From: Balanoglossus misakiensis
Lineage: Eukaryota > Animalia > Hemichordata
Assembly (NCBI GenBank): GCA_040954595.2
Contig: CM082585.2
Span: 5,171,808-5,235,807, forward strand
DNA length: 64,000 nucleotides
Reading direction: 5' to 3'
In this document: positions 1,507 to 64,000 of the stretch, piece after piece
Position numbering within the stretch: the stretch's first letter is position 1
How the letters are laid out: every line of letters starts with the position of its first letter
Notes under the pieces: model-generated
What the model was told of the DNA's origin: nothing
Databases searched by the model: none
The model's input: only the letters and a program-made list of their open reading frames with translations
Position numbers and translations under genes: made by a program

Positions 1507-1545
<39 letters not shown>

Positions 1546-37645: not shown

Positions 37646-38196
37646 TCACTTCTTTTGTGCGTCTTCTGCAAAAAATAGAGAACTCGGGTGAACACCACGA
37701 TCCACGGTTAAACCATTAACATAGGGCCGCGTTCGACTGCCAAAATTGCTGATAAAATAGCAATACAGAGATACTGGGCAAATAACACCAACGGTCAAAC
37801 ATGCTTTGAGTTTTGTCTGTCACACGTTGTCCGTTCCCCAACACATCGGGCGGGGATGGTGGGGGAGGGGGGGTGGTAGTTGGCACGTTTCTTTCGATTC
37901 ACGACTCAAATGTCTCTGATAATGCCTACTACACACTAGGCAACTAAAGTGTTTCACGCGAGTGAGTTATAGCGTTAAAATACATGTATGTCCAATTAAC
38001 AAAGCTAAAAATAAGAGAACTTTACGGCACCTTTAGGCTTTCGTCTTTGTGGCTCGTTGGCATCCACGTCTGTGAGGGCGACGGCGGCTTGGAATTCTGG
38101 TGTGTTTTCGGGGTACATGTCTGTGTTTTCCCCTTCTTTGCGTTCAGGTGCACCGCCTGTCGGTTTATCGCCATTATCGTTTCCCTTTGAAGACAT
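37646..38196 (-). CDS. DxNE microprotein A (61 aa, unknown family)
   Basis: Exons 38196-38031 (phase-1 donor AAG|GTGCCG, weak) and 37665-37646 (acceptor ttttttgcag): MSSKGNDNGDKPTGGAPERKEGENTDMYPENTPEFQAAVALTDVDANEPQRRKPKEDAQKK*. TATA-like element at ~38236 and kB-like site at 38477-38486. Confidence 0.55.
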
Positions 38197-40912
38197 CGCT
38201 GCGTCTTTAAATATGTGTGTTTACGAGATGCAGGTCTATAAGGCCAGTGCAACTAATTAGCCTAGAACAAAGGATGAATGACAAGTTAAGAACGCGTCTA
38301 ATTTATTCCATTATTCAATCATTCTCGGTCGAATATCATTATCGGTCTATGAAACGCAAAAATTAAATTTCAACAAAGTGGACTGACGCACACAAGTGAA
38401 AAATTGTCAGTGTACATACAAAAATAGACCAATAAATTGTCTCCCATATTTTGGTTAAAATTACTGACCTGCAGCTGGAAATCCCCTTTGAATTGTTTTA
38501 AGAAAGACTGGTTGAAGGCGGTTCAGTCCGGTCCAATCTGCAAACGTTGCAGGCCGTTCTGTTACCTGCGAATGAGTAAAAAGCAGATCCGGTGACGGAA
38601 TTACTATGTATAGAGTCACTTGTCCCAGTCAGCTGAGGGCCAACAGACGCGGTAATTTCCATACCAGAGCTTAGTCATGCACCATTTGCATAATGTTTTC
38701 AACGAAAAACGGGGCGTATTTTATTCCACTGAAACGACTGGTGTCATCGTCAGGGCAACAGACGACCCCGGATTCGTGTGCATAATTTCAAAGGCACCGA
38801 GGGTTGGCCAAAAATCCCCCTAGCTCTTGAGGCTCTCATGACCGACAGCGACAGACGTTAACAATCGATTGAGGCCAACAGTAAGGGGGGAACGACACTG
38901 CCATTGTTACAGTAAATTGTGATCACAGAGACAAGTTTTAGCACGTTTTAGCGCGTTTGAAGTATTTTCACAGTGGAACAAAGGCCCCTGCTATTTGAAA
39001 CACCAGAAGTACCCCGGGGAATGTGGAAGGACAAAGGATCTGAAATTAAACTAATTTGGGACATTTTAGAAAGACTCCTGCCCAATAAACAGATGTGCAT
39101 CTCAGATTTTTTTGTCAATAATTTTTGAGCCATTAGAGATTGCAACGATTGAGTTAATTTTGTCGAATGCTCCAGGTTGGGCTGTGATATTTAAAGGAAC
39201 ATGCTGATATCTAGAGATTTGTTTCAATGTATACACAGCTGTGAGCTGATAAGATGGCAATGGGGCGTGTTTACCCCACAATTCGGTTGTAATGAAATAT
39301 TGTGAAATTAAGCTGTCAACCAAGGTTGGTTGGCGATGTACAACACCTTTTAACCTCGCTTTAAATACAACACTTGGCTTGGCTACGGTATGATATGGCG
39401 TGGGGCCCACCAAGGTGTTTTCAGGCGGCAACTGCAGACAAAATCTGGTCCATTTCAATAAATTGCAAAATGTTTCTTTTTGATATTGGATAGAGAAAAT
39501 AACTATAAAATATAAAGAAATTTCATCTGTTTAATATTTTGTGGTTTGGATATATTACAAATGTGTTTTATTTTATTAAAATCCATGATTGTGAGTTTTA
39601 TGAATACATGTCTAGAGGGCAGGGAGACCAAGCTGTCTTTTTCAACAAATAGAATTTTCACAAATTCAGGGTTTTGTCATTCCAGGTTTGTTTGGCAGAT
39701 ACCTAAATTTTGAACTTTTAATTTGGTATCAGTGCCAAATTCGTATGTGACTATTAATCGTAGAATTTTGGCCATTTCATATTTGACCTAGATAGCATTT
39801 TTGCTGTATTGAATAGGAGGCTTGCATGACTCTGAGAGGCCAGGCGTGTACTCCAGAGGGCCTGTTCTATACAAGTAGACGCTCCATATTCATTTACACA
39901 CAGTCATATCATGATTGCAATACACTGTTCATTGCCTGGAAATGTGACGTGACGTTTTGCCCAATTCAACGACAATGCCAATATGCTAAAAATGAACTAA
40001 ATTTTTAGTTAATTTAAAAGAACTATTTAACTACAAATAATTTCAATATTTTAAATGTGTCCAATTGCTGACTATACACTGTTCTGCGTGAGATTATCGT
40101 TGGCATGAGATCACGACCTGGATATTCAACACATATAGACAATTTGTGGTGTAAAGGAATCATGTCATTTCTATTGTACGCATAGGAAATTGCAAATAAG
40201 GAGGAAATTTCAAAATATACATATTCTTTTATTTGTTATATTAAAATGTCTATTATCATGGTTATAATAAAATCAACAATGTGATTTTTGGCCGGACTGA
40301 AATGGAATAATCAGTAGCTACCAAGTAAAACGCAAAATCATTTGGGTTTGAACTGGCATGGAAATGTGTCGCATTAAAATTTCTCAATCTCTAGTAACTC
40401 CAATTTTTGACTTCTTCCTCACTAGTTTCTTGTTTTCCTCTGTAAGACATAAAATGGCTAAATATCTATTTTTTTCATCCCAGTCCTTTTGTGGTAATAT
40501 GTATTGTTTAATAATGTTGAAAATTGAATTCAAGACTTGAATTCATTTGTCGACAATAACAATTGGTCGCTACTCATATACTTGCACAAGCTTTTTTAAA
40601 CCTATCCATGGTAAATCAAGAGACCAGACTTGATACATGGGAGACGAATTCTGAAAAAGGGTCAAAAGTTACAATTACTGCTGGTTTCATTGACCACGAG
40701 CATATTGGCCAACATTATCAAAGCCAGGTGCATACTTATACCAACTTGGCAATGCTAAAGCAATATCGCGCTCAACTAAAGTTTTGTTCAACAGAGAATG
40801 AAGCGATTCCATTTTTATTTTTGAAAATCAGACCAAAATCATCTATGCTGATTTGTAGGCAGTGGTCATCAGCTAACCAATAATGCCACGTATGTCATAC
40901 ACGCCATTTTAT

Positions 40913-41201
40913 TTAAGGATGTACGTTCCTCAAAATCGAAAGTATTGTCATTTCTTTTAATTGTTGATTTTTAGATTATCCTGTGTATGTGTAATGAAAA
41001 TCCGTGATAAAATATAGGGGTCACGGGCTGGTTTTTGAAATACTAAGCCATGAATTTAGTCGATAGTAGAAGAAAAATGCTGACTCAGCATTTTTCACCA
41101 ATGGTTTGTCTATGGGCAAAAATTTTAACGAAATTTATCTCAAAATAGAGCGCGGTGACCACACGATTTTACCAGTGTACGTTCTACGCGTACATCCTTA
41201 A
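40913..41201. mobile_element. Kolobok-like MITE (TTAA TSD, GG...CC termini)
   Basis: ttaaggatgtacg ... cgtacatccttaa. Confidence 0.75.
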
Positions 41202-42013
41202 GGCTCTGTAAGCTGTAAGCTGTTTGTTTTGGCACTTTTATTATGTATTTATCCTTTCATTTCCCGTTCGAATCCCTGGACCATGGTAGAACACCTTATA
41301 AACCCTGCCAATACGTATTCAGTCAGCATTACTATTGTTGAAATTCGTCCGGACTGGAATTCATAGGGCAATATCTATTAGCCTATTACATAATATACAA
41401 CTAACCATTGTCCAGAGCATATCAACCTGAATTTCTCCGTTCTTATTTTATTCTTTCATATTCGATCAATATTGCTGACAAGGTAACTGACCGGATTGTC
41501 TGTGTAAATACTGTAAAAATTAAGCCAAAATACAATTTCAGTAGGAGACTGTTCAATTCTGTATTGGTCTGAACTTTCGCAGGGCCAGACATGTTTGCTA
41601 GAATTTAATATGTTCATGTATAGGTGAGCAAATGTGGTTTCTTTATCAACCTATCGCTTAACGGATACTTTACGGACAATAATTAACAATAGTAATTTTT
41701 ATACCAAAAAAACCCAGACTATTGTAAATTCCTTTTTTAGTATAAGATGTTGTAAATTTTGAAATGCAAACGATTAAAATGATAACGTCATTTCAAACCA
41801 TGAAAGGTGATGTCAGACCATTTAAATAACATATCGTTGTCTACATGGAAGCAGCCAATCACCATTCCTCAAATAAATCACGTGGTACTATATTTTATAA
41901 TAAAAACACCTGTTGAGTGTTACCTTTTTGCATAGTCATCTCGGTCTAAAAAGGCGCATCAGCTAACAGACAAAACTACGAAGTTTCAATTGTCTACTCT
42001 AAAAAATACCAAT

Positions 42014-42739
42014 ATGAGTGATACAAATGAACCCAAGGAGGTAGCCATAACTGCAACCACTGCAACAACTACCAGCACCGAACCATCTACCGATTCCAAC
42101 GAACCACAGGGTAACCGTGACGTATTGAACATTCAGTTTTGCCATCCGTATTTATAGTTGTTAACCATTTTGAATGGTTTTCAAATACATGAACCATTTT
42201 GAGTGGTTTTAGAACACTTTAAGAAACAGTCACTTCTCTGATCCTACAACTTTGTCTTTAACAATTTGTTTGTCCCACAGGTCGAGATGGCAAATATAAA
42301 TTTGAAGTGTGTGAGGTCGGCTTGGTACCAAGTCAACTGCTTGGAACCGTTTTCGGTAAGGCAATTTCAAAGGAGAATGTTTAATGTCAGTAATGGATTT
42401 CATTTCTTTCCAAATGAAAAAATGGATAGGTCATTTTACTTACTAAATCTTATTATCAACTAATTATCACAAGTCCCAACCACCGTTTTTTTCTAATCCG
42501 TGACGAAAAGCCTGGTATTAACATGCTCCATATTCAAAATGTTGGCAGCAAGTTTAGCTCAAAATACTGGATTAAACCATTATACAACTTACGAATCTGT
42601 GTTGACCGTATTCCTATGGACAATATACTCCCAGAAATACACCATTCAAATTTCAGCATATTTATTTTCTTACTTTTTACAATTGTATTAATATCATGTC
42701 TCTCACTTTATCCAAGGCGGGGCACAGTTTAGGCGTTAA
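42014..42739 (+). CDS. DxNE microprotein B (64 aa)
   Basis: Exons 42014-42110, 42281-42355, 42717-42739, then a 3'-UTR intron from 42773 to ~43438: MSDTNEPKEVAITATTATTTSTEPSTDSNEPQGRDGKYKFEVCEVGLVPSQLLGTVFGGAQFRR*. TATA at ~41896 and CCAAT upstream. Confidence 0.7.
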
Positions 42740-44290
42740 AACAACGGGTAGAGTTCGTGCTGTTCCTACTAGGTAAGTTGAGCCTAACAATACATTATGT
42801 ATTACACGAAATAGGTAACTTATGTTGAAATGTTAATACGAGATTATACCATGGATACTTCATTTCATGTATGCCACAACGAGGCAAAAACAGAAACTGG
42901 AGATGCACAAACAAGAGTCAATGAGATATATTTACAATAACGTTTCGCGTCTGTGCACACACATGAGTTTTGTGGTTTTGTGACATGAAACGAAATTAAG
43001 TCCAAGCCATATATTCAAGATGACGGTTTCTCCTGATCTGTGAAAAATAGTCAATTTTTTCTCTCTGAATTTTCGCGCACTTTTTCGCATACTTTTCAAT
43101 TTGTATACACATACATATAATTGTGGCGAGGACAACTAGGGCATGTAAAGGTTGAAAGACGATATTAAAGGAAGGGAAGGGGGATGGGAACAGACAGAAA
43201 GAGAAAAACTAAGAATGAGTGATAGCCAGAAGGAGTGGGTGGATGGGGATGGAAAGAGGTTGGGGGGGGGGGGGTCATAACAGCGTATCATTCTTTATGT
43301 GTAAAGCAGTTGTGATATTTATAACAATGTTAATGTATATGTCTCTAGGAATTTGGTTGTCATAGATTCATAGATCTTGCTGTGATTTACCATTACTTTG
43401 TGTACAGTTAACTGAAGTTTGGAATTTTATTGTTGCAGATAACTGATCACCCACCAAATAGAACAGAAGATCTTGTCAACTGGTATAGAGGTCCATTCTG
43501 GATTTGTGATATTGCAATAAGAATGACAAGCTTTAAATCACTTACTGAAAAGCACTTGTTTAAGAAATATACACTTTTCACACGTACCAACATATTTTAG
43601 ATTTATGACCATGGAATTTTCCTACCTTGAATAAAACATAAATACATGTACTTTTAAGTTGTTTTTCTTTGCTTGCAAGTAATAAGAAAGTTAAAAAGTT
43701 ATTATCCACGAAAAGATGGCAGACTAAATGCAAAAGAATGTTGGTTAATGATTTACTGAGTTTTCTGACAGCGCCCATTGCTGTGCATATATAGAGTGAA
43801 TTGAGGTTTATCAAGGCACATTCAAGGAACAGCATTTCCTCTTACCAGCGGTTAAATGAAATGGGCCCCAGAACAAGCATTTTAACTGTCCATTGATATT
43901 CGCACACTCCAAATATGGAGAGAATCCCATAAGATAAGTAGCAAAAAAATCCTGATATGTAGATTTGTTGTTTGTTTACGCATTCAACTAGTATAATCAT
44001 ATTCCATAGCCAATAAAACACTGCATTATCCTCTGTTAAACCATGGCTTGCATAAATTAAAAGAGGGTCCCGGCCAATCACGACACAGTACATGTGGCAC
44101 TGACATAATATAATTGTATGTAAATTACAGTCATAAAAGTATCCAGGTATTGTCCAATCCGCTGAAATATTAAAATTGAGGAACTCCTACAAAAGATTTT
44201 GAAACTAATATAAGAGCAGTTTCCACAGCAAATTGCATCTCTCGGTGAAAAGACAAACTGAAGTTGTACAGCACATCGAAAGTAATCAGT

Positions 44291-44413
44291 ATGCCCGATA
44301 CGAATCAGCCACAAGGTACCAAGACCAGAATACCCACCACACCAAAGCCAAAGCCACCGGTCCAAGGTCCCAGCTCGAATACACCTTCCAACGAAGGTTC
44401 CAAAAGGAAGTAG
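44291..44413 (+). CDS. DxNE microprotein C (40 aa; 67 aa if the in-frame TAG is read through or is a recent nonsense change)
   Basis: TATAAGA at ~44210; MPDTNQPQGTKTRIPTTPKPKPPVQGPSSNTPSNEGSKRK*. The frame stays open to donor 44465 and into an exon starting at 44828. Confidence 0.55.
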   Translation: MPDTNQPQGTKTRIPTTPKPKPPVQGPSSNTPSNEGSKRK

Positions 44414-46747
44414 AGGGACTCGGAGAAGAAAAACGCTGCCAAACATGACAATGCAGACTCACAGGTTAGCGTGAAATAAGTTAACATTTCTTAAATGGAC
44501 AAACACCCTACCGTTTCCCCTCCTTTGTTATCTAACAAGTCTGATACTTCTCATGCTATAAGCACACGGGTTCAATTAATTAATCTTAAGTCAAGTTACC
44601 CTTGGTTTGGATTCAGAGACATATGAGTAAACTTTCATGTCATAAGTACAGAACTTGAGTTCTATACACCACCAACCTGTCACATTTCTCACAATTCCTT
44701 ATGCATAGTTTAAGTACCAAAACCTAGGTGTCCATGTAAAGGACCGGTATTCTTTATTTTATTATAGTATTTGGAACACCTTTGGCGGTAGCATACAACA
44801 CTATACGCAATTTTTGTGTATTCACAGCATACGGCATCAACATCAATAACGCAATAATAAATGAATGATTCTACAAGATGAAGAACAAGAAATTACAGTT
44901 ACTACTGCTTTGCAACTAACGCTGCGTTAACCTCTGCAACGTCTAAAACTGTGCACCATCTAAGCGGTAGACCCGGTGTGGTAACCAATGCGAAATGACG
45001 ACTGAATTATCAAGCTTCAGCGGTCAAGCTCCGACAAATCCAAGAAAAACTACCAAAGACAACCACATACAACTGGTGTACATCCGGCCAATTTCTTCAT
45101 GACCAATGACATTATACTTTCCAACCCTTCAAAGCTAATAACATAATATTCAATGTAAACCGATTACATGTATTTTAAAGATGATGTATCTCCAGCATAA
45201 TTCAATCGAGAAAGACATTGTCATACTTGAAGAACAGTTTAACGCGTTTTCATTTTCACTTTTAAGGCAGATCGCAACAGCTAAGCTTAGTCACTGTTTT
45301 GCCACAGTATAAATAAAGTTACCCGAGATATTGATGTTTGATCTTTATATTCACTAGTAGTTTTTTGCATTTTCATCCTTTATATGTATGCATGTAACAT
45401 GATTGTATTCTGTGATACATGTAGCATTCAGAACTTGTGACACTCGCGTGAATAAAGTTAATGCTGAACGATTTATGCCTCATGATTTCATTCACACTCG
45501 ATTTCGTCATTCGGATTGAAAGTATGCCAACAACATGCCATCCTTTTGTTGTCAAATGAGATTGTCCTGTAAATTTCATGTAACAATCGAGCATTCCTGT
45601 AGCCCAGATTGGCCCTGTCCTTACATCCCTAATACTCGGGAATATTTCTCAAACAAAACAAGTTGAAGACATAACCTACAATCTCCCTATTCCACAAAAT
45701 TTATGCTGAGAGACTAAGTATGCTCAGGTTGACAGGTTGTATTCATAGCATGATGAATGGACTCGTTTGACCTTTGGGGTCATGCAACTGAAAGACCTAA
45801 GTAACAAAGCTAGCCATTGGTTGAAAAGATTTATACTGACCTGAGTATGTTAAGTAGCAAAACGTCGATAAACCACTGGGTGCACTTTCGTTATGATAAT
45901 GCCCACCTTTTCACGTCAACCTGTTTGTCTTCCAAATATCACCAAATTGGTTTTTGTACTCTCAATAGAAAGGGAATTTCCGTTACACACAAAACAGAAT
46001 AGTTACATACGCACGAGGATGAAAACCTCAATTCTATGTACGGGGTCTCTCAGTGCAGATAAGTTGAGACGAAAGTCAATGTGATAGTTATTTATCTGTT
46101 TTGCCAAATGGTGTATAGACAAAATTAGTAAACGCTGAACAAGACGGCATGTGCATGTTTTCAAGAAAATAAAATAACGGGGACCTCACTTAAACATAAC
46201 TGTCCGAAGGAAATGTGCCAAAACAGCATGAGAAGGCAGTCACGTCATGATATCGCCCACCCAATCCCATTTGAATAAATGTCCTAAATTGTGACATTGT
46301 ATGCCCTGTTTTCTTTAAAAAGTGACAAAAACTTTTGAAGTGGACGGAATTTCAAATGAACAAAAAAAAGTCAATTATTCCCGATTGTGAATCGTGTTGT
46401 GAAATTGCTAAAGGTGGCATCATTTAATGGACAGGACTGCAAAAGGTATCTTAAAAATTGGAAAAAAATGTGACAGTAATAAAGCTCAGAGAGATTCAGT
46501 ATAGTCCTAATCAAAGATGTAATTTTAAAGCTTATGCATGATCGGAAACAGCATACTGAGAATCGTGTTACAACTTGGGATCACTGACCAATCGTGGAGG
46601 TAATGCATCAACCACGTGACAATTTTCATCATAATAAATTCAGAGCTGAGCTTGTGGCAGCCATTTTTATAAGAACTCTCTGGAACATCCGTCTCATTCG
46701 AAACCATCTTCTTCGTTGAATTTTATCGCGAAATATTAACTACAATT

Positions 46748-47594
46748 ATGGGAGGCTCTTCCAGTACAGACGGTAACGAGGGTTCCGGTTCAAAAGGTTC
46801 CAGTGGAAACGGCAATAGTGGTAGTTCGAATACAGATACGAACGAGAGGAAAGTTGAACTAGGTGTGTATTCTCAGATGACGAATTTCAAATTTATTTTC
46901 TCTCACTCAAAACACAGACACTTTTTAAATCATGATTTATAATTCGCTTGTAGGTAACATTTGGATCATGACACCTTGTACTTCCATGCGTTACTTTGAT
47001 CAAAAGAAAAAAAGTGAAAATTCGCCATGGTTTGCCGCCACGCCTGCCATAGCGTTAACACGCCCGTTAACGCGCACGTAGCTGTAGACACAATTTTCAT
47101 AGAAACGTTTGGTGCTAGCGGTGAAATGAAATGAGCTTCTAGACTTTAGTACGATCTACAGTGTTGATCAACATAACATTAAAAAACCTCTGGCGTTGCT
47201 TTTCTCCAGATGTACTAAGCAACAATCCCTGTCTCCGTCAGCGTCCTGCCGATGGTCTTTCTGTTTCTACACGTAAGTGTATCTATATTATATACATGTA
47301 CTAGAAGCGTACAAGCAGCTACGTTGAATAGGAACAAGCGTTTAGTACATTTTATCTCGTGTCGTTTTGTACCAAATGCCGTGCTATATGATATGTAGTC
47401 AATCAAGTTTAAGCAATTCGACAGTGGACACTATCAATTCTCTATTGGACTGACAAATACTATCACCAGGGTACGTGTACCTGCTCAACATATTCATTCC
47501 TTTTTGGATATGGTCCAAGAGTTATTTAAAAGGGGGTTCCCTTCAATGAAATGACAAATACTTTTAATTTTACACAGATGGTGGTCTGCGTTAG
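46748..47594 (+). CDS. DxNE microprotein D (64 aa, MGxxxS myristoylation start)
   Basis: Exons 46748-46862, 47210-47272, 47578-47594, 3'-UTR intron 47631-47864, AATAAA 48145: MGGSSSTDGNEGSGSKGSSGNGNSGSSNTDTNERKVELDVLSNNPCLRQRPADGLSVSTHGGLR*. TATAAGA at ~46668. Confidence 0.72.
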
Positions 47595-48864: not shown

Positions 48865-49567
48865 ATGGGTAATTGGTGCAGTGGTGGCGACGCCAACGAA
48901 GGTTGTCCACGAGGTTGCAAATACCAACCATCAAACACAGGTTCCTGCGTAGATTCTAATGAACCGAAGGGGACGTACACACGACCACCAAATTCAGGTT
49001 TGCAAAATGAATAACGTATATGATAGTTGTGACAGATGAGAAGACGACCATCACTTGAACGTATATTGCAAATAACTGAGTGTTCTGGTTCACAAGTAGT
49101 TTAACCTTCCATTGCGAGATTTTGTGGAGAACGATCAACGTTTAGCAGAAAAACTCAAAGTATATTTAAGTCTATCAAATAACACATAAAACTTTAAAAT
49201 GCTGGCGGGTGACATTTTTTCAGAACCAATAAATTCGACTGATCATAAATATACTAATACCAGGTGTTTCTTTTGTTCTTACAACACAATTTCTCATTTT
49301 TACAGAGCAAATAGATTTATCCTTGTACGATGGAGGGCTTTACGATAGTTCAGGTACGTAGGCAGCGTTTACTACGCACATAGTTTTAGGTTTGGTCAGA
49401 TGGTCTTACATCCAGGCTAGTTTTATGACATTTCCAATCATGGTAACATTTCTTAAGAAACAATCAAACCTTATGAAGTGACAGTTTCTCCATTTTCTTG
49501 CAAGTTTTTTGCAATGAGTAAAGTCTACAATTCTTCTTTGTTTGCAGGAAACTACTATCGCCGCTAG
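48865..49567 (+). CDS. DxNE microprotein E1 (66 aa, MGNWCS myristoyl/palmitoyl-type start)
   Basis: Exons 48865-48997, 49306-49353, 49548-49567: MGNWCSGGDANEGCPRGCKYQPSNTGSCVDSNEPKGTYTRPPNSEQIDLSLYDGGLYDSSGNYYRR*. Confidence 0.72.
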
Positions 49568-51548
49568 TGCTTCAGGTAACACAGGTAAGACAATAAAATT
49601 AAAATATAGATAATCCGTCAAATATTTGATTGGTGTGCAACCAACGATGTATTTAGTTGACATCAATGGTTCTTTTGTTTAAACTGTGATTCAAATTAAG
49701 ACGAGTTGGACAGTCTTTGGACAGTCAGTTACAATGACGAATTGGGGATTCCCCCTGCAGACGAATGACTATAATCTAAAAGTATATTAATCATTTTGGA
49801 ATAGTAATTTTGACTTTCGATGGGCTTTTAAATATATATACCATTTAACACTGTAATATCCAAATTTTGTTGTTGTTTTCATAGTGCTAGGAAGTTCTGT
49901 TTTTCCTTTGCTTTGGTGAGAAATACTGGTTTGGTCACAAATGCCATAATCTTTCTTACTGTGTGCTGTGATGCTCCATATTAGCTCAGAAATTCTTCTT
50001 CAGAAAATATTGCGTCCAATTCAAACAGAATAGCATGCACATGGATATTGTACACAAAATGGTGATTGGAAGCTCAGGCCAGTTCAGTGTCCAAGAATAA
50101 ATTGTCGTTTGTTTGATTTTTTTCACGTGGCCACCCGGCAGAAATTGGCTGATCTCACATTTCCACGCGTACGGTAGCGCTGCTTAAATTTGCATAGGAA
50201 ACCTATATTTTTTACTTTTGAAAACAATGTAGTTCAAGAAAAACGCCTTGACCCATATCCGTTGACACAGAGATGTAGTAAATATTTTGAGTAATTTGTA
50301 TTTCATAGAATACCACTGACTTTATATGTACATTTTCAGTTCTTATATACAGTGATTTTGTTTTGTACATTATATGAATGGTACTAAGGTTTCATTGTAC
50401 ATGTATTTCAAAGTTGACATGTAATATCTTTAGTGTGAAATAGTTCACAGGTTAGGTCTGACCATGATGAGTTGCCAATATAGACATTAGTTTTAGTCTT
50501 CCATGGTAACTGTACATTTTTAACTTAATCAATCTAATAAAATACACTAGTTGATAATACACACCTGAAGATGCGTGATCTTTTGTTAATTACATTCTTT
50601 GCAAATAGCTTCACACACAGTCCAGAAGGTTAACAAGAAAATTGATCTTTTGGCGCTACTAAATATGCACCCAAGACACATAATACATAATGGAATGACA
50701 TTTTTGGGATATCCACCTGATATAGACGTGTGCCATTTTCCCCACGAAAACGCAGACAACAGATTACCAGCGTGTATTCCAATGGTGAAGCGAAAGTGTG
50801 CCACGTGAACTATCTATACACACTACTAGCAGCTGATAACATTGCTGCAATTGTTTTTCAAAATACAATGGCAACAAAATCTGTCGTGTGTGCATGGTGT
50901 GAATCTGAGGCGATTAAAGAGAAAAATTTAGCTGCCAACTCGGTGTCTTTGGCCAATAGTACTATTGGCACCATGAGAAAGTGTGCGCATTGAGTCGATA
51001 TTACTTGAGAACATCGAACACTTAATTACTAAATTGTAGACAAATTTAGCAAATTATACACAGCTGACCTTTGACCGAGAAACTCATTCCGTAAAGGTCA
51101 TGCGCAGAAATTCAAAGGGCATATATAGGTTTAGCTTAAACAACATTTAGAGCTTTAAATATACCATTACACTAAAATCTTATAAACATTCAGAACTTGT
51201 TAAAAAGAATCACATAACCAAGAAATATTTAAATCAATATTTAAGTCAAGCGCCTTCAATTGTTACAAGAACGAATATTCATTGCAAGCTCGTTCCATAT
51301 ATGATTAAGTTGATGCTTCGTATGTGATACTGATGTATCATATTTGTTCTAGTTGCAAACGTCTTTAGTGGACGAATTCCCTGTCTACTTGTGTTTATAT
51401 TATTTTCAATATAAGTCAACATAATTTTTTTCAACCATAACATACATTTTTTGTTAATAATGTTTAATATTAAATTAAATGAGGCCAGAAGCCGTCATTA
51501 AGTCGTCGGGTGTTTTCAAAAGATATATTGGTGATTTCATGACTTGTT

Positions 51549-51674
51549 GGGGAATTCCAGAAATTGGCCAATGGCAATGACACACGCGCGCCGCTTCTAA
51601 GACCAATAGCAAAAATCTACGTGTTGCTCCACACTGACACACGAGATCTTGCGCAATTCCAATACTATAAATAT
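51549..51674 (+). promoter_or_regulatory. kB-like site GGGGAATTCC, CCAAT boxes and TATAAAT upstream of gene F1
   Basis: GGGGAATTCC 51549-51558, several CCAAT, TATAAATA at ~51666, about 100 nt before the ATG. Conserved in copy 2. Confidence 0.6.
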
Positions 51675-51767: not shown

Positions 51768-52287
51768 ATGGGCAACCAAAGCAGCAACGAGCCTCGACCA
51801 AGAACTAGCAATTCAGGCTACTACTCAACCAGAGGTTATTCGTATCCGAATGTCAGTTCTAACGAACCGAAGAAAGGTATGTCAAATTTCCGTTGAAATT
51901 ATCTTTGCCTTTTGCGCCAGTGTTACAGCGAACTCGATTCCCACGAAAAGTAAGTTCCATAACCATTTGCAAAAACCCAATCAGCCAATGCATTTTCTGA
52001 CCAACTTTTTTTTCAAATCTTATTAACAACAACTTTTTTTCTGTGTTTTTCTCAAGCTGTGCGCAAACGTCGTTACGAACCTGAAGGTGGGCATTGCGGC
52101 GACGCAGACTGTCTTGAAAGAGGTAAGTATTTAAATAAATATCACGCAGTTTTCCAAAAGAAAAGAAAATATCACGAGAAATTACCAATGTGTTTCATAC
52201 GATTCCTATCTCCTCATGGACCTCATTTTCTGTCAATGTTCTCACTGTTTACAATTTTCTTCTACAGGATTTGTTCATAACCGTTAA
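51768..52287 (+). CDS. DxNE microprotein F1 (64 aa, MGxxxS start)
   Basis: Exons 51768-51876, 52057-52122, 52268-52287, then a 3'-UTR intron to ~52721: MGNQSSNEPRPRTSNSGYYSTRGYSYPNVSSNEPKKAVRKRRYEPEGGHCGDADCLERGFVHNR*. Strong Kozak context accATGG. Confidence 0.75.
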
Positions 52288-53484: not shown

Positions 53485-53651
53485 TGACTCATTTTGACCG
53501 AGATTGGTTGGTTAACGATGATTGATAGACGAAACAGTTTTTTTTTTTTCATAAACGTTCTCACAAAAACACTGTGCATGAATCAGCTAATTCTTGTGGA
53601 AATCCCCTCATCTATTATGCACTGGAATTTACCGACCAGTAGCATGACTCA
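53485..53651 (+). promoter_or_regulatory. AP-1 (TGACTCA x2) plus kB-like (GGAAATCCCC) module upstream of gene G1
   Basis: TGACTCA 53485-53491 and 53645-53651; GGAAATCCCC 53598-53607. Confidence 0.5.
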
Positions 53652-54098: not shown

Positions 54099-54404
54099 AT
54101 GTCAGCTACAGAAACTGGACTAAGACACCCACACAATGGCGTGGAAATACACTATGACGAGAGATGCGAATATATTATTTTGAGACGAAGGTCGCAATAC
54201 GACCAAGAAGACCGCCAGTATCAAGTGAAGGTAATCCAACGACATTGCTACTGTCCAAACCCCAAGCCGAGGGTGGAAACACATCGAAATCATTGGTGTG
54301 CCTACAGGCAAACCCGCCATCGTTACTCTTACAAACTGGTTCGAAGTTGTGTGTGTGGACAATTCTACTCTCCTAATCCAAACATTGATGTAAACGAGCT
54401 GTAA
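54099..54404 (+). CDS. Cys/His-rich microprotein G1 (101 aa), two internal repeats, C-terminal DVNEL
   Basis: Single-exon ORF MSATETGLRHPHNGVEIHYDERCEY...RHCYCPNPKPRVETHRNHWCAY...RSCVCGQFYSPNPNIDVNEL*. The frame is kept in copy 2, including a 3-nt indel. Confidence 0.72.
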   Translation: MSATETGLRHPHNGVEIHYDERCEYIILRRRSQYDQEDRQYQVKVIQRHCYCPNPKPRVETHRNHWCAYRQTRHRYSYKLVRSCVCGQFYSPNPNIDVNEL

Positions 54405-55491
54405 ATCACGGGTGGTGACGTTAAGGACAGGTCCCGAGAAACAAAAACTTTACAGCTGTGACGTGGTGGAGAAAAGCGTCAAAGAGCTCGCATTGGCCTA
54501 ACTGGAACGAGTGACGTCTCTGAACAACATGCGTTGGAAGATTACACAGCGACATTGAATCAAGTCACCTATGGACATGTACTTCTACACGGGACATAAT
54601 TTTCCTCATCATCAACATTCGTCGGTGAAAGATTGGCTACTGACTGATTTAATCCACACATAGCAAAATGTGTGCACCATCTAAAAAGGCAACGTTTAAA
54701 AATATCGGACACGGTAAATTCACATAAAGTTTCATTTCGCAACAGGTTTTGAACAACATGTTTTGTATTTTATTTTAGTAGTGACTTCATTCTTGAACCC
54801 GTCGTTATTTTCGTGTGTTTTTTATACGAGCTGCCGTATGGCCACATTGCATTTGTTTTATTTTGAACCATGCTCGTTTAGATGCCCAACGTAAACACCT
54901 CGAGGACAGGTAAATACTTTGGGAAGTAAAAAAACTGTTTAGCTTAGAGACAACACAAACAGTACGTTGTCATTGGCTGCTGGCCAACAATTAGAGAGCT
55001 GGAACGACACAGACGGACATTAGTCTAATTATGGAAATCAAAGTAATGCTCGTGATTTACACATGCGACATGAATACCCTTATAGTTTTGGTGGAAATCA
55101 TACTTTGTTCGTTCTACAGACACAGCTCCGGGATATAGGCACACATTTTCAACATCAGAAAAACAACAGTGGTACATTAAAATATTAGGGTAAAGAATTA
55201 ATTGACATTATACAGTGATTTTCAATGGAATTGCAATTCTTAACCGGGTAAATGTCACATGATACGGATTCTTGTGAATGACTCACGTAAACAAAACCAT
55301 CGGTCATCACGACTAAAAAAGAAAATCGTATGACATCACAGACACAAAGAAAAGGATTGACCAATAGAAAGGGAGAACGCGGCAGGGCAGGTAAAAAGCA
55401 CGACATCGACAAAAACTCTTGCAGGTAAACTTGCGAAGAACATTTTGGTAGCTGACGAGCATCTGTGAGGAGCATCTGAAGTCAAAAAAAG

Positions 55492-56193
55492 ATGGGTAAT
55501 TGGTGCAGTGGTGGCGACGCCAACGAAGGTTGTCCACGAGGTTGCAAATACCAACCATCAAACATAGGTTCCTGCGTAGATTCTAATGAACCGAAGGGGA
55601 CGTACACACGACCACCAAATTCAGGTTTGCAAAATGAATAACGTATATGATAGTTGTGACAGATGAGAAGACGACCATCACTTGAACGTATATTGCAAAT
55701 AACTGAGTGTTCTGGTTCACAAGTAGTTTAACCTTCCATTGCGAGATTTTGTGGAGAACGATCAACGTTTAGCAGAAAAACTCAAAGTATATTTAAGTCT
55801 ATCAAATAACACATAAAACTTTAAAATGCTGGCGGGTGACATTTTTTCAGAACCAATAAATTCGACTGATCATAAATATACTAATACCAGGTGTTTCTTT
55901 TGTTCTTACAACACAATTTCTCATTTTACAGCGCAAATAGATTTATCCTTGTACGATGGAGGGCTTTACGATAGTTCAGGTACGTAGGCAGCGTTTACTA
56001 CGCACATAGTTTTAGGTTTGGTCAGATGGTCTTACATCCAGGCTAGTTTTATGACATTTCCAATCATGGTAACATTTCTTAAGAAACAATCAACCCTTAT
56101 GAAGTGACAGTTTCTCCATTTTCTTGCAAGTTTTTTGCAATGAGTAAAGTCTACAATTCTTCTTTGTTTGCAGGAAACTACTATCGCCGCTAG
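55492..56193 (+). CDS. DxNE microprotein E2 (66 aa)
   Basis: Exons 55492-55624, 55932-55979, 56174-56193; differs from E1 by T25I and E45A. Confidence 0.72.
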
Positions 56194-58773
56194 TGCTTCA
56201 GGTAACACAGGTAAGACAATAAAATTAAAATATAGATAATCCGTCAAATATTTGATTGGTGTGCAACCAACGATGTATTTAGTTGACATCAATGGTTCTT
56301 TTGTTTAAACTGTGATTCAAATTAAGACGAGTTGGACAGTCTTGTGACGTGAGCACACAAGTTGGAAGTTGACGTCTTTGATAGGGAGCGGCTGTGTGGA
56401 ATTTCAAAAGTGAAAGTGACTTCACTCTAATGTCGTCTGATAAAAAATGGCAAAAACAACTGACAGAGCATGCGTGGACAAGAAAACAGGCGGGGCTGGG
56501 AGGTCAGATGATCGATCATTATAACGTCTATGTGAACGACTGAAGGTTTATTACAATAGAGTAATTTTATGACAAACAGCACACTAATTACTTTATTTTC
56601 ACGTTATTTACTTTCAGGCGTTTCGATTTACCCGAAACTTGTGACAGAGTCTACATTGTTTTAAGACCATATAAGGAGATGGTTACCATATAAGGAGATG
56701 GTGACAAAGCAGAAATCATTGGAATTCAGTTACAATGACGAATTGGGGATTCCCCCTGCAGACGAATGACTATAATCTAAAAGTATATTAATCATTTTGG
56801 AATAGTAATTTTGACTTTCGATGGGCTTTTAAATATATATACCATTTAACACTGTAATATCCAAATTTTGTTTTTGTTTTCATAATGCTAGGAAGTTCTG
56901 TTTTTCCTTTGCTTTGGTGAGAAATACTGGTTTGGTCACAAATGCCATAATCTTTCAATTTCTTACTGTGTGCTGTGATGCTCCATATTAGCTCAGAAAT
57001 TCTTCTTCAGAAAATATTGCGTCCAATTCAAACAGAATAGCATGCACATGGATATTGTACACAAAATGGTGATTGGAAGCTCAGGCCAGTTCAGTGTCCA
57101 AGAATAAATCGTCGTTTGTTTGATTTTTTTCACGTGGCCACCCGGCAGAAATTGGCTGATCTCACATTTCCACGCGTACGGTAGCTCTGCTTAAATTTGC
57201 ATAGGAAACCTATATTTTTTACTTTTGAAAGCAATGTAGTTCAAGAAAAACGCCTTGACCCATATCCGTTGACACAGAGATGTAGTAAATATTTTGAGTA
57301 ATTTGTATTTCATAGAATACCACTGACTTTATATGTACATTTTCAGTTCTTATATACAGTGATTTTGTTTTGCACATTATATGAATGGTACTAAGGTTTC
57401 ATTGTAAATGTATTTCAAAGTTGACATGTATTATCTTTAGTGTGAAATAGTTCACAGGTTAGGTCTGACCATGATGAGTTGCCAATATAGACATTAGTTT
57501 TAGTCTTCCATGGTAACTGTAAATTTTTAACTTAATCAATCTAATAAAATACACTAGTTGATAATACACACCTGAAGATGCGTGATCTTTTGTTAATTAC
57601 ATTCTTTGCAAATAGCCTCACACACAGTCCAGAAGGTTAACAAGAAAATTGATCTTTTGGCGCTACTAAATATGCACCCAAGACACATAATACATAATGG
57701 AATGACATTTTTGGGATATCCACCTGATATAGACGTGTGCCATTTTCCCCACGAAAACGCAGACAACAGATTACCTGCGTGTATTCCAATGGCGAAGCGA
57801 AAGTGTGCCACGTGAACTATCTATACACACTACTAGCAGCTGATAACATTGCTGCAATTGTTTTTCAAAATACAATGGCAACAAAATCTGTCGTGTGTGC
57901 ATGGTGTGAATCTGAGGCGATTAAAGAGAAAAATTTAGCTGCCAACTCGGTGTCTTTGGCCAATAGTACTATTGGCACTATGAGAAAGTGTGTGCATTGA
58001 GTCGATATTACTTGAGAACATCGAACACTTAATTACTAAATTGTAGACAAATTTAGCAAATTCTACACAGCTGACCTTTGACCGAGAAACACATTCCGTA
58101 AAGGTCATGCGCAGCAATTCAAAGGGCATATAAAGTTTAGCTTAAACAACATTTAGAGCTTTAGATATACCATTACACTAAAATCTTATAAACATTCAGA
58201 ACTTGTTAAAAAGAATCACATAACCAAGAAATATTTAAATCAATATTTAAGTCAAGCGCCTTCAATTGTTACAAGAACGAATATTCATTGCAAGCTCGTT
58301 CCATATATGATTAAGTTGATGCTTCGTATGTGATACTGATGTATCATATTTGTTCTAGTTGCCAGCGTCTTTAGTGGACGAATTCCCTGTCAACTTGTGT
58401 TTATATTATTTTCAATATAAGTCAACACAACTTTTTTCAACCATTACATACATTTTTTGTTAATAATGTTTAATATTAAATTAAATGAGGCCAGAAGCCG
58501 TCATTAAGTCGTCGGGTGTTTTCAAAAGATATATTGGTGATTTCATGACTTGTTGGGGAATTCCAGAAATTGGCCAATGGCAATGACACACGCGCGCCGC
58601 TTCTAAGACCAATAGCAAAATTCTACGTGTTGCTCCACACTGACACACGAGATCTTGCGCAATTCCAATACTATAAATATCGAACGAGCGTTTTGTAGAA
58701 AGTAGTTTGGTGACCACATCATCCACGACATTTGCAGAAATCTTTTTTTTTCCTCTGGCAAAAATCGAAAACC

Positions 58774-59295
58774 ATGGGCAACCAAAGCAGCAACGAGCCG
58801 CGACCAAGAACTAGCAATTCAGGCTACTACTCAACCAGAGGTTATTCGTATCCCAATGTCAGTTCTAACGAACCAAAGAAAGGTATGTCAAATTTCTCAT
58901 GAAATTGTCTTTGCCTTTTGCGCCAGTGTTACAGCGAACTCGATTCCCACGAAAAATAAGTTCCATAATCATTTGCAAAAAAACAATCATGCAGCCAATG
59001 GATTTTCTGACCGATTATTTTCCAAATCTTTTAACAACAACTTTTTTTCTGTGTTTTTTTCAAGCTGTGCGCAAACGTCGTTACGAACCTGAAGGTGGGC
59101 ATTGCGGCGACGCAGACAGTCTTGAAAGAGGTAAGCATCTAAACAAATATCACGCAGTTTTCCAAAAGAAAAGAAAATATTACGAGAAATTACCAATGTG
59201 TTTCATACGATTCCTATCTCCTCATGGAACTCATTTTCTGTCAATGTTCTCACTGTTTACAATTTTGTCCCACAGGATTTGTTCATAACCGTTAA
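58774..59295 (+). CDS. DxNE microprotein F2 (64 aa)
   Basis: Exons 58774-58882, 59065-59130, 59276-59295; three synonymous Pro-codon changes and one Cys>Ser change versus F1. Confidence 0.75.
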
Positions 59296-61061
59296 CACAT
59301 TTGGACAGGAATGCCCACGTCCTACTTTTGGCCGGTGAGTACATCAGATTACCTCATTGTTTACTGTTCACTACTTTTAAAACAACCGCCTTGATGTCTT
59401 CTCTGAAAAGAATATTCACTGTGTATCATGTCCACGCCCAAGTGGTACTACATGTATGTAAAGTCCATACAGCTTGTTGCCAAAGCAAAATAGAATACCG
59501 CCTTACTGTCATGATAGTATACGGGGTCAACATTCATGTTATCTTGTGTTGCAAATACAATGCTCTGACAAAAGACACTCGGGTCTAGCACATTCCAGCT
59601 CAGCTAAACCCTGAGGTTTTGTTGATTTATTTATAGCAGAGAGTCACACGAGAACAGATCAGAATTTTTCGTTGTGGCACTGTTAGATTTGCTCTTGCAC
59701 TTACTGTATTTCGATTCATTTACAGATTACCATATAAATTCTGAAACCGGCAAATACCTCCTCAAGCCTTCACCATCGTCTACAGTGCACAACATCATGT
59801 TTCAAGGACAAGTACTCCGTCCCAGAGAAAATCCAAGTCGTTTTAGCAAGGACGCAGAGAAACTTGTTTCAATCACCATCTTTAGTACTGTTGACATTGT
59901 CATTAATTATGTTACGTTACCATGACACTGTAATTCAACACAATGCTTATTGTTTAACCACAAACACCCGATCTGTCTACGTCAGCACCGTGTGATACCC
60001 GCTTTTAAATATCACAGTTTTCACAGTTTAACATTAAATTACACTAATATTATTTTTGAGGCTGTGTCAATCAAATTTTATATTAATGTCTATACATGTT
60101 GCCAGGTCATTCTTTTACTGCCAGAGTTTTAATTGTTCACTTTCATTCCTTTGTCGCAATGTAAAATTAATTCGGTAAGGTTTTATACTAGTGTGCATGG
60201 ATTTTTCACTTTTTCAAAATGAACAAAGGTCAATTCTCCCAAGGAAGTTACTCATAGTTCTTTATATGCAATACAAATGTGTTCAATTACATGGAATGTA
60301 TCCTGTTTGATTATAGTTTATCACAGCAGTATAGTGTAGGTCAATTTGCCTTACTTTTGGATGTGCAGGTAATCTTAAGTTCTGTTATTAAAATATTAAT
60401 ATATTGACTCGATATGTCCATTAGTTTGTATGTATGGGTGAAACACCGTCACGTTAGTAGCATGACTGATTTTGACCGAGATTGGTTGGTTAACGATAAT
60501 TGATAGACGAAACAGTTTTTTTTTTTCAAAAACGTTCTCACAAAAACACAGTGAATGAATCAGCTAATTCTTGTGGAAATCCCCTCATCTATTATGCAAT
60601 GGAATTTACCGACCAGTAGCATGACTCACTGTTGGCGTTGATTGGCTGATCGTCCTGAATGACCGGGAGTATCTTTTAAGAATACCTTAACACACACACA
60701 AACAAACAAACACTTTTCAATTTACTTTTTTCCGATGCAACGGACGACAAAAAGGATGATGACATCGCTGGACAGAACATTGAGAAAATAACCACTGAAA
60801 TGCTAATACGGTTGTGCCCCGAACCTTATTGGTCTTAATTTTATACTATCAGCCAACCAAAAATCAACACCAGATCCCATTGGTCACAACTGAATAATAG
60901 CATTCCTCCAAAATCACACATATAAAATTTTAACGTCAGGGTGCGTAGTTGTCTACCTTGAGTACATTCAAAATCAAGACTGCCAAGTATTGGCCCGCAA
61001 GTCAATTCATCGAGTTGAACGTTTGCTGCTTAATCTCCTGTACAGCTTACAATTGTTCATA

Positions 61062-61370
61062 ATGTCAGCAACAGAAACTGGACTAAGACACCCACATAAT
61101 GGCGTGGAAATACACTATGACGAGAGATGCGAATATATTATTTTGAGACGATGGTCGCAATACGTCCAAGAAGACCGCCAGTATCGAGTGAAGGTAATCC
61201 AACGACATTGCTACTGTCCAGACCCCAAGCCGATGAGGGTGGAAACACATCGAAATCATTGGTGTGCCTACAGGCAAACCCGCCATCGTTACTCTTACAA
61301 ACTGGTTCGAAGTTGTGTGTGTGGACAATTCTACTCTCCTAATCCAAACATTGATGTAAACGAGCTGTAA
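61062..61370 (+). CDS. Cys/His-rich microprotein G2 (102 aa)
   Basis: Paralog of G1. All Cys/His and DVNEL are kept, with an in-frame Met insertion; TATAAAA at ~60921. Confidence 0.72.
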   Translation: MSATETGLRHPHNGVEIHYDERCEYIILRRWSQYVQEDRQYRVKVIQRHCYCPDPKPMRVETHRNHWCAYRQTRHRYSYKLVRSCVCGQFYSPNPNIDVNEL

Positions 61371-61753
61371 ATCACGGGTGGTGACGTTAAGGACAGGTCC
61401 CGAGAAACAAAAACTTTACAGCTGTGACGTGGTGGAGAAAAGCGTCAAAGAGCTCGCATTGGCCTAACTGGAACGAGTGACGTCTCTGAACAACATGCGT
61501 TGGAAGATTACACAGCGACATTGAATCAAGTCACCTATGGACATGTACTTCTACACGGGACATAATTTTCCTCATCATCAACATTCGTCGGTGAAAGATT
61601 GGCTACTGACTGATTTAATCCACACATAGCAAAATGTGTGCACCATCTAAAAAGGCAACGTTTAAAAATATCGGACACGGTAAATTCACATAAAGTTTCA
61701 TTTCGCAACAGGTTTTGAACAACATGTTTTGTATTTTATTTTAGTAGTGACTT

Positions 61754-64000
61754 CATTCTTGAACCCGTCGTTATTTTCGTGTGTTTTTTATACGAGCTGC
61801 CGTATGGCCACATTGCATTTGTTTTATTTTGGACCATGCTCGTTTAGATGCCCAACGTAAACACCTCGAGGACAGGTAAATACTTTGGGAAGTAAAAAAA
61901 CTGTTTTGCTTAGAGACAACACAAACAGTACGTTGTCATTGGCTGCTGGCCAACAATTAGAGAGCTGGAACGACACAGACGGACATTAGTCTAATTATGG
62001 AAATCAAAGTAATGCTCGTGATTTACACATGCGACATGAATACCTTATAGTTTTGGTGGAAATCATACTTTGTTCGTTCTACAGACACAGCTCCGGGATA
62101 TAGGCACACATTTTCAACATCAGAAAAACAACAGTGGTACATTAAAATATTAGGGTAAAGAATTAATTGACATTATACAGTGATTTTCAATGGAATTGCA
62201 ATTCTTAACCGGGTAAATGTCACATGATACGGATTCTTGTGAATGACTCACGTAAACAAAACCATCGGTCATCACGACTAAAAAAGAAAATCGTATGACA
62301 TCACAGACACAAAGAAAAGGATTGACCAATAGAAAGGGAGAACGCGGCAGGGCAGGTAAAAAGCACGACATCGACAAAAACTCTTGCAGGTAAACTTGCG
62401 AAGAACATTTTGGTAGCTGACGAGCATCTGTGAGGAGCATCTGAAGTCAAAAAAAGATGGGTAATTGGTGCAGTGGTGGCGACGCCAACGAAGGTAGTCC
62501 ACGAGGTCGCAAATACCAACCATCAAACACAGGTTCCAGCGCAGATTATAATGAACCGAGGAGGACGTACACACGACCACCAAATTCAGGTTTGCAAAAT
62601 GAATAACGTATAGGATAGTTGTGACAGATGAGAAGACGACCATCACTTGAACGTATATTGCAAATAACTGAGTGTTCTGGTTCACAAGTAGTTTAACCTT
62701 CCATTGCGAGATTTTGTGGAGAACGATCAACGTTTAGCAGAAAAACTCAAAGTATATTTAAGTCTATCAAATAACACATAAAACTTTAAAATGCTGGCGG
62801 GTGACATTTTTTCAGAACCAATAAATTCGACTGATCATAAATATACTAATACCAGGTGTTTCTTTTGTTCTTACAACACAATTTCTCATTTTTACAGAGC
62901 AAATAGATTTATCCTTGTACGATGGAGGGCTTTACGATAGTTCAGGTACGTAGACAGCGTTTACTACGCACATAGTTTTAGGTTTGGTCAGATGGTCTTA
63001 CATCCAGGCTAGTTTTATGACATTTCCAATCATGGTAACATTTCTTAAGAAGCAATCAAACCTTATGAAGTGACAGTTTCTCCATTTTCTTGCAAGTTTT
63101 TTGCAATGAGTAAAGTCTACAATTCTTCTTTGTTTGCAGGAAACTACTATCGCCGCTAGTGCTTCAGGTAACACAGGTAAGACAATAAAATTAAAATATA
63201 GATAATCCGTCAAATATTTGATTAGTGTGCAACCAACGATGTATTTAGTTGACATCAATGGTTCTTTTGTTTAAACTGTGATTCAAATTAAGACGAGTTG
63301 GACAGTCTTGTGACGTGAGCACACAAGTTGGAAGTTGACGTCTTTGATAGGGAGCGGCTGTGTGGAATTTCAAAAGTGAAAGTGACTTCACTCTAATGTC
63401 GTCTGATAAAAAATGGCAAAAACAACTGACAGAGCATGCGTGGACAAGAAAACAGGCGGGGCTGGGAGGTCAGATGATCGATCATTATAACGTCTATGTG
63501 AACGACTGAAGGTTTATTACAATAGAGTAATTTTATGACAAACAGCACACTAATTACTTTATTTTCACGTTATTTACTTTCAGGCGTTTCGATTTACCCG
63601 AAACTTGTGACAGAGTCTACATTGTTTTAAGACCATATAAGGAGATTGTTACCATATAAGGAGATGGTGACAAAGCAGAAATCATTGGAATTCAGTTACA
63701 ATGACGAATTGGGGATTCCCCCTGCAGACGAATGACTATAATCTAAAAGTATATTAATCATTTTGGAATAGTAATTTTGACTTTCGATGGGCTTTTAAAT
63801 ATATATACCATTTAACACTGTAATATCCAAATTTTGTTTTTGTTTTCATAGTGCTAGGAAGTTCTGTTTTTCCTTTGCTTTGGTGAGAAATACTGGTTTG
63901 GTCACAATCGCCATAATCTTTCAATTTCTTACTGTGTGCTGTGATGCTCCATATTAGCTCAGAAATTCTTCTTCAGAAAATATTGCGTCCAATTCAAACA
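61754..64000 (+). repeat. Tandem segmental repeat, copy 3 (truncated by window end; gene E3)
   Basis: Same start sequence; colinear with copy 2 to the end of the window. Confidence 0.95.
62457..63159 (+). CDS. DxNE microprotein E3 (66 aa, Cys-poor variant)
   Basis: Exons 62457-62589, 62898-62945, 63140-63159: MGNWCSGGDANEGSPRGRKYQPSNTGSSADYNEPRRTYTRPPNSEQIDLSLYDGGLYDSSGNYYRR*. Confidence 0.72.

Follow-up and report, generated by a model that had tools for sequence, protein, structure and literature searches.

The Bearded family of Drosophila (Brd, Tom, Ocho, m4 and m-alpha, encoded in Brd-C and E(spl)-C) consists of clustered genes for small, poorly alignable proteins that damp the pathway inducing them, and the IAP antagonists Reaper, Hid, Grim and Sickle, likewise encoded in a gene cluster, have little in common but a docking motif for one host domain, a free N-terminal A-V-x-F. 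RIN4/NOI proteins and PBS1 are small, disordered and lipid-anchored, carry two copies of a short motif and act as NLR-associated guardees or decoys. The Bomanin cluster of Drosophila is induced by NF-kB and encodes secreted products with a common CxxC core, and the BEX/TCEAL cluster of mammals is marked by an alignable BEX sequence and Pro ends. The present analysis concerns a cluster of at least 11 predicted small genes (A, B, C, D, E1-3, F1-2 and G1-2; 37646..63159) of the acorn worm Balanoglossus misakiensis, located in a 64,000-nucleotide stretch of DNA (GCA_040954595.2, contig CM082585.2, positions 5,171,808 to 5,235,807 of the forward strand; hereafter the window). These genes, which are likely paralogues, form a real, apparently undescribed family built on a known design, its members united by one short motif.

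Guards and decoys have been defined for plant NLRs (PMC11781737), and the Neuralized-binding NxxN motif is strict, since single N changes abolish function (PMC12678834). FEM1B binds Arg/C-degrons and has BEX2 as a client (PMC11053023). In acorn worms, a large share of the genes taking part in an NF-kB-linked response lack orthologues, many such genes being recorded (PMC10210618).

A short motif in otherwise dissimilar proteins

All 11 models give an open translation with GT-AG introns, and the frames and motifs listed in an earlier, sequence-only reading of this DNA were recovered at their positions (Table 1). For chance tests, positions 36,501-54,800 (18.3 kb, one copy per gene type) were compared with 300 dinucleotide shuffles. 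The pattern [DS].NE[PGRL] has 10 matches against a mean of 1.4, with none of the 300 shuffles reaching 10; furthermore, four Met-initiated frames hold two motif copies, against 0.0 in the shuffles (0/300). Since the pattern was derived from these same peptides, plainer forms were also run: D.NE (8 versus 1.6 expected; 0/300 shuffles), [DS].NE (15 versus 6.3; 2/300) and NE[PG] (9 versus 4.1; 7/300), and with the count limited to Met-initiated frames all four patterns stand at 0/300. The left 36.5 kb of the window holds four motif matches and no pair. Three further loci that match the seed patterns at 28-29 bits, one of them interrupted by a stop, were put down to chance.

Among the 13 N-E or N-Q dipeptides of the seven proteins, 12 fall inside the motif. 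Position 2 is Ala, Ser or Thr and position 5 is Pro or Gly in 10 of the 12 motifs each, and the motif is therefore better written as [DS]-[AST]-N-[EQ]-[PG]. The residue after Glu/Gln is Pro in 7/12, and Asp starts the four-residue block (P4 relative to a P1 Glu) in 9/12. Mixed synonymous codons encode it, which argues that it is kept at the protein level and is not a DNA repeat. Proteins B to F carry two copies, 21-29 residues apart, and basic residues often come after the last of them. Once the motif is masked, alignment fails for 19 of 21 protein pairs, C-G (2/300) and C-E (9/300) being marginal; the description of the proteins as otherwise unalignable thus stands for all but these two pairs. 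These figures support a fast-diverging paralogue family in which only the short motif is kept, with G as a weaker member.

Several features point to coding. Genes B, D, E and F follow the common plan proposed earlier, with introns in phase 1/1 and middle exons of 75, 63, 48 and 66 nt, each a multiple of three. A purine stands at -3 of the start codon in all seven gene types. By a simple ad hoc score blind to reading frame, the modelled internal acceptors take the first two places of the interval in B, E and F, and places 1 and 4 in D. In B to F, a strong donor (top 2%) follows the stop by 13-51 nt (33 nt in B and 51 nt in C, in the 3' untranslated region), within the 50-55 nt limit of nonsense-mediated decay. 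F1 and F2 differ at 4 of 195 coding positions, three of the four changes being silent, versus 47 of 700 in introns and flanks (p=0.013), and G1 and G2 at 6 of 177 coding positions versus 17 of 149 in the 5' flank (p=0.008), with one in-frame 3-nt indel; these comparisons indicate coding constraint between the F copies and between the G copies.

Three models need qualification. For gene B, the frame and motifs hold and the third acceptor moves, the best being at 42,717 and not at 42,728, so that B ends in Arg like D, E and F. Gene A carries its motif in exon 1; the sole donor scores poorly and the modelled acceptor is surpassed by two others, which leaves the C-terminus uncertain (61-97 aa). 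Gene G does end in DVNEL, a single off-consensus copy that arises in 1-7% of G shuffles, depending on the pattern, and this Cys-rich protein of a different kind is accordingly the weaker family member. Its two halves each end in CxC (residues 50-52 and 84-86; 54099-54404) and it has several His, which suggests a small metal-binding domain without known relative. AlphaFold applied to G alone gave a low-confidence model (pLDDT, the predicted local distance difference test, 38.5) with one predicted beta-hairpin. A cystine-knot identity for G was dropped on inspection (CxC plus CxC, no signal peptide).

The proteins also carry predicted address tags. N-myristoylation follows the consensus MG, a permitted residue 3 and a small residue at 6; such a start (MG..S) is found in D, E1-3 and F1-2, with Cys at position 5 beside it in E, and A, B, C and G do not match. 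Arg is the last residue in all four three-exon genes (B, D, E and F), against a background of 8% Arg. Basic clusters occur in A, C and F. The claim that signal peptides are lacking agrees with a simple hydropathy scan, in which no signal-peptide-like or membrane-spanning stretch appeared.

The statement that the family is not a described one agrees with the libraries searched, within the limits of searches that are weak for low-complexity pieces of 30-60 aa, and with B, C and D outside the word search. No homologue was found for G by word search of protein collections, nor for E, F and part of A (three of seven types; 17-72 aa) by alignment search with exon 1; exact look-up of G1, G2 and C gave 0/3. 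The ESM Atlas gave no usable match for G and E exon 1, and the PDB none for G and the exon-1 profile. In Pfam, the exon-1 peptides of A, B, D, E and F and the whole of C and G returned only DUF6174 for G (E 0.09), and NCBIfam (0/9) and Rfam (0) were empty. The single HMMER match of G among 1.84 billion representatives was dismissed, since its score merely adds up weak scores over a 7-fold repeat (pairwise E 0.59). Judged by title or listing, and with subscription journals largely outside the search, nothing related was found in the literature on a DxNE-type motif or on such a hemichordate cluster.

Promoters, tandem copies and the neighbouring receptor gene

The NF-kB consensus GGGRNWYYCC occurs at six distinct sites in the 18.3-kb cluster, where 0.54 are expected, and none of 2000 shuffles reaches six; the left 36.5 kb has one site (cluster versus left, p=0.007). 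It was first spotted by eye and was then one of 15 motifs scanned, and the excess survives correction for these 15. The sequence-only reading mentions neither these sites nor the myristoylation-type starts, the Arg ends and the burst of changes in E3. The three repeated sites are identical across all copies of the tandem unit, and gene C has kB sites with one mismatch only. Apart from kB sites, CCAAT boxes are present in 7/7 gene types and a TATA-like element lies at -45 of gene A. At equal offsets from the start codon, B (41850-41900) and D (46585-46635) have CCAAT at -159/-160, CACGTG at -135 and a TAATAAA; despite these common boxes, their promoters have no overall alignment. Forty shuffles cover the counts of Su(H) sites (3 versus 2.5), K-boxes (22 versus 15.8), Brd-boxes (4 versus 2.5) and GY-boxes (2 versus 1.4); proneural E-boxes (11) match the maximum of these shuffles and are equally enriched in the left control.

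Genes E, F and G lie on a tandem unit of 6.6-7.0 kb that is present 2.3 times and continues past the window end. Divergence between units ranges from 5-7% over F and the beginning of G to about 1% near E and 0% where the unit ends, a pattern that unequal exchange would produce. The presence of three distinct E copies is incompatible with two haplotypes. In the intron that follows exon 3, directly upstream of the kB site, E2 and E3 (56343-56716) carry about 370 nt that E1 (49717) lacks. Exon 1 of E3 has seven private changes in 133 nt versus five in 1353 nt of non-coding flank (p=2e-5); all seven are non-synonymous, and none touches D, N, E or P/G in either motif. Three E3 changes remove cysteines (three of four Cys among nine changes, p about 0.007, noticed post hoc). 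Taken alone, the comparison of non-synonymous with synonymous changes is not significant (p 0.11-0.18), and conversion from an older copy is therefore a live alternative to positive selection in E3.

The NLR-like gene reported beside the cluster is an intact open model about 4 kb from A. Its Pfam matches are DED (1e-13), TPR_12 (3e-18) and NB-ARC (5e-4, below the cut-off), so that it combines the three parts of a STAND-TPR receptor, namely a death-fold effector, a STAND P-loop NTPase and a repeat sensor. The nearest orthologue is that of Ptychodera flava (72%), followed by those of Glandiceps talaboti and Saccoglossus kowalevskii (59% each) and of sea urchin (27%); the corresponding regions lie around XP_070538996-XP_070539020 in P. 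flava, at LOC144442669 in G. talaboti and at LOC100377265 in S. kowalevskii. The gene is multicopy in P. flava, with four relatives on one chromosome. Among solved structures, the DED is nearest the caspase-8 prodomain and the TPRs nearest kinesin light chain; one database entry is named 'kinesin light chain-like' from the TPRs alone. The sea-urchin orthologue has DYNEL near its last TPRs, probably by chance, and the acorn-worm orthologues lack it. The Saccoglossus accession is absent from the one supplement of PMC10210618 that was searched.

Two related elements with long inverted repeats, resembling miniature inverted-repeat transposable elements, lie at 25361-25623 and 33184-33549, the second inside intron 4 of the NLR gene. 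Between this gene and A, a stop-free frame of 134 codons (36699-37103, minus strand) gave only a weak match to P-element transposase (E 0.22). The other genes of the window are ordinary neighbours.

Table 1. Predicted genes, repeat units, kB consensus sites and neighbouring genes, by position in the window
Feature	Position	Strand	Length (aa)	Remarks
Gene A	37646..38196	-	61	Exon 1 38196-38031, DANEP at 38064 (one motif); modelled exon 2 37665-37646, uncertain
Gene B	42014..42739	+	64	Exons 42014-42110, 42281-42355, 42717-42739; DTNEP + DSNEP; C-terminal Arg
Gene C	44291..44413	+	40	Single coding exon; DTNQP + PSNEG
Gene D	46748..47594	+	64	Exons 46748-46862, 47210-47272, 47578-47594; DGNEG + DTNER; myristoylation-type start; C-terminal Arg
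Gene E1	48865..49567	+	66	Exons 48865-48997, 49306-49353, 49548-49567; DANEG + DSNEP; myristoylation-type start, Cys5; C-terminal Arg
Gene F1	51768..52287	+	64	Exons 51768-51876, 52057-52122, 52268-52287; SSNEP twice; myristoylation-type start; basic cluster; C-terminal Arg
Gene G1	54099..54404	+	101	One exon; 6 Cys, two CxC; C-terminal DVNEL; weaker member
Gene E2	55492..56193	+	66	Open model
Gene F2	58774..59295	+	64	Open model
Gene G2	61062..61370	+	102	Open model
Gene E3	62457..63159	+	66	DANEG + DYNEP; exon 1 with 7 private non-synonymous changes, three removing Cys
Tandem E-F-G unit	48159-54787, 54788-61753, 61754 to window end at 64000	+		Third copy partial; self-BLAST 97-99%
kB consensus site	38477..38486			290 nt upstream of A
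kB consensus site	45972..45981			776 nt upstream of D
kB consensus site	47532..47541			Intron 2 of D
Palindromic kB consensus site	49744..49754			Intron after E exon 3; identical copies at 56745, 63711
kB consensus site	51549..51558			219 nt upstream of F1; identical copy at 58555
kB consensus site	53598..53607			501 nt upstream of G1; identical copy at 60575
DED-STAND(NB-ARC-like)-TPR gene	28741..33659	+	918	5 coding exons: 28741-29231, 29881-30020, 30421-32268, 32964-33142, 33561-33659
Fibronectin type III exons	1189-3224	+		Ordinary neighbour
DUF229 protein	7013-9109	+		Ordinary neighbour
Sulfotransferase	17839-19428	-		Ordinary neighbour
Nucleotide-sugar transporter	24048-26014	-		Ordinary neighbour

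Candidate functions of the cluster

The explanation tentatively preferred, as possible though short of probable, is that the genes encode NF-kB-induced, short-lived, two-site competitors that would dock on one conserved host signalling or ubiquitin-ligase domain, with a Bearded-like action but without membership of that family. An immune or wound stimulus would act through NF-kB to induce the cluster, and the [DS]-[AST]-N-[EQ]-[PG] motif of its likely disordered products would dock on, and compete for, that host domain, two motif copies allowing avid binding to a dimeric or oligomeric partner. Address tags would spread the motif over compartments, with myristate, with or without palmitate, directing D, E and F to membranes, and the basic clusters (A, C and F) and the Cys-rich domain (G) possibly serving as further tags for delivery to nucleus or cytosol. 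The Arg end may be taken up by a FEM1-type ligase, so that the proteins would turn over fast and their effect would be a brief pulse of feedback. A host partner that is itself conserved is favoured over a pathogen enzyme because the motif core is fixed while its surroundings have diverged beyond alignment. The sequence-only reading had offered a docking or decoy motif or, alternatively, a protease recognition site; docking or decoy stays the best reading, whereas a cleavage site is unlikely because Pro would follow the bond in 7/12 motifs, and proteases disfavour Pro at that place.

A number of points weigh against this explanation. From the DNA onward, each step towards a function is inferred, and the evidence for paralogy consists of the motif, the gene plan and the clustering. 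The kB motif was seen by eye before it became one of the 15 scanned; a perfect site lies within 1 kb upstream in just four of seven gene types (A, D, F and G), none is found upstream of B and E even with one mismatch allowed, and the NLR gene has no perfect site. Promoter pairs that score above nearly all shuffles number 2 of 21 (C-E 0/200 and B-G 3/200), and these are short AT-rich matches. None of the tested TRAF, Neuralized and SPRY motifs is present (the SPSB/SPRY-box ligand motif [ED][LIV]NNN has 0 matches in the 11 proteins), so no partner domain can be named. Among the E copies, nine changes are non-synonymous and none is synonymous, which is contrary to purifying selection. An additional in-frame ATG precedes the E1 start by 13 codons (48826-48864), in poor context and absent from E2 and E3; it could hide the MG start of E1 and with it the myristoylation start. 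Finally, all four terminal Arg codons are CGY, and conservation at the DNA level is therefore possible.

Among the rival explanations, a true motif family that serves a purpose other than immunity (development, regeneration, stress or germ line), for which the kB-like sites and the NLR neighbour would be incidental, is unlikely without being negligible. Genes B and E, with no upstream kB site, would fit such a role, the CCAAT boxes of all seven types and the CACGTG at -135 of B and D hint at other inputs, and Bearded illustrates that such clusters can be developmental (PMC12678834); the strong kB excess speaks against it, as do Su(H), K-, Brd- and GY-box counts within shuffle range and E-boxes no richer than in the left control. 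At the other extreme, it is very improbable that the cluster is mostly non-coding or an artefact of chance frames, long non-coding RNA exons or haplotypes assembled in tandem. No homologue emerged from the protein collections searched, the splicing of gene A is ambiguous and the unit divergence of about 2% lies within the range of heterozygosity; nevertheless, such an origin would have to account for the motif and pair statistics, the frame-preserving middle exons and the F and G coding constraint, three distinct E copies exceed two haplotypes, and the seven gene types would outlast the loss of one unit as a false duplication.

The remaining readings draw on the neighbouring receptor gene. Distinctly unlikely is an undescribed animal immune module in which NF-kB-driven, motif-only microproteins define a new short linear motif and are coupled to the DED-STAND-TPR receptor next door, whether they serve it as guarded baits or act as natural tethers with two ends, one (DxNE) holding a host signalling domain and the other (Arg) passing that domain on to a FEM1-type ligase. 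Taken by itself, the version with guarded baits is improbable: the proteins would imitate a host protein attacked by pathogen effectors or proteases, the TPR sensor would monitor them, and damage would trigger DED-caspase-8-type signalling after the logic of RIN4 and PBS1 in plants. It draws on the intact receptor gene 4 kb from A with its caspase-8-like DED and peptide-binding-type TPRs, on membrane tags, disorder and paired motifs resembling those of NOI proteins, on the burst in E3 exon 1 with three of four Cys affected, and on the multicopy state of the receptor on one P. flava chromosome. Adjacency is, however, the sole link between cluster and receptor, whose gene lacks a perfect kB site. 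Baits under pursuit by pathogens would be expected to change their motifs, yet the core here stays fixed; and as the F and G bodies are 5-7% diverged and the substitution test in E is not significant, conversion could explain E3. Quite improbable, and more so than guarded baits, is that the proteins are caspase substrates or pseudo-substrates and NF-kB-induced brakes on apoptosis, in which D-x-N-E would run from P4 Asp to P1 Glu, cut before Gly and uncuttable before Pro. Asp at P4 in 9/12 motifs and the DED of the neighbour agree with this, and Glu is tolerated at P1 by caspases-3, -6 and -7, with cleavage about half as fast (PMC7225963). Against it, P1 is never Asp (12/12) although Asp is the preferred residue, both F motifs lack Asp and Pro follows the bond in 7/12. 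P2 is an invariant Asn, which is not known to be a caspase preference.

A motif fixed in seven otherwise unalignable proteins would imply a conserved binding pocket that none of the tested motifs explains, and the partner may exist in vertebrates as well. The cluster would then be a layer of invertebrate deuterostome immunity missed by annotation and homology searches, and may bear on why many immune-induced acorn-worm genes lack an orthologue (PMC10210618). If the link to the NLR is true, the locus would place a receptor gene next to those of its baits, an arrangement rarely seen in animals.

Comparison with described systems

The sequence-only reading had likened the motif to the TRAF6-binding tail of TIFA. 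The small residue two before Glu/Gln does echo the TRAF2/3/5 core, so that a divergent MATH-type partner is conceivable, and the NF-kB context is alike. The cluster proteins differ in having neither a full TRAF motif nor an FHA domain: the TRAF6 motif PxExx[FYWHDE] occurs in 0/11 proteins, the TRAF1/2/3/5 motifs [PSAT]x[QE]E, PxQxT and PxQxxD have 0 matches in the same 11, and only the first and third positions of the TRAF1/2/3/5 core fit, in 10/12 motifs. Pro stands at the position after Glu in 0/236 TRAF6 binders (PMC9597381), versus 7/12 motifs here, and the Pro and basic residues that follow Glu in the cluster are those that block TRAF6 binding. The TIFA/TRAF6 resemblance is therefore given up.

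The motif is internal and usually doubled, unlike that of Reaper, Hid, Grim and Sickle, and an N-terminal IAP-binding motif is absent, the starts being MS, MP or MG in 11/11 proteins. Bomanin and BEX/TCEAL are likewise tandem clusters of tiny, fast-evolving genes, but the cluster proteins lack a secretion signal, a CxxC core, an alignable sequence and a Pro end. Like the RIN4/NOI proteins, the predicted products here are small, with two copies of a short motif and an NLR at hand, and are probably disordered and lipid-anchored; the receptor in this case is an animal DED-STAND-TPR protein, and no NOI/AvrRpt2-cleavage domain appeared when whole C and G and the exon-1 part of A, B, D, E and F were compared with Pfam down to an E-value of 1. 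Bearded differs in that the present genes are spliced, with predicted lipid tags, kB sites and no excess of Su(H), K-, Brd- or GY-boxes, and the NxxN motif of Neuralized ligands has 0 matches in the 11 proteins. The two systems are alike in their clustered, small and poorly alignable proteins with a short Asn-containing motif, which in Bearded competes for an E3 ligase.

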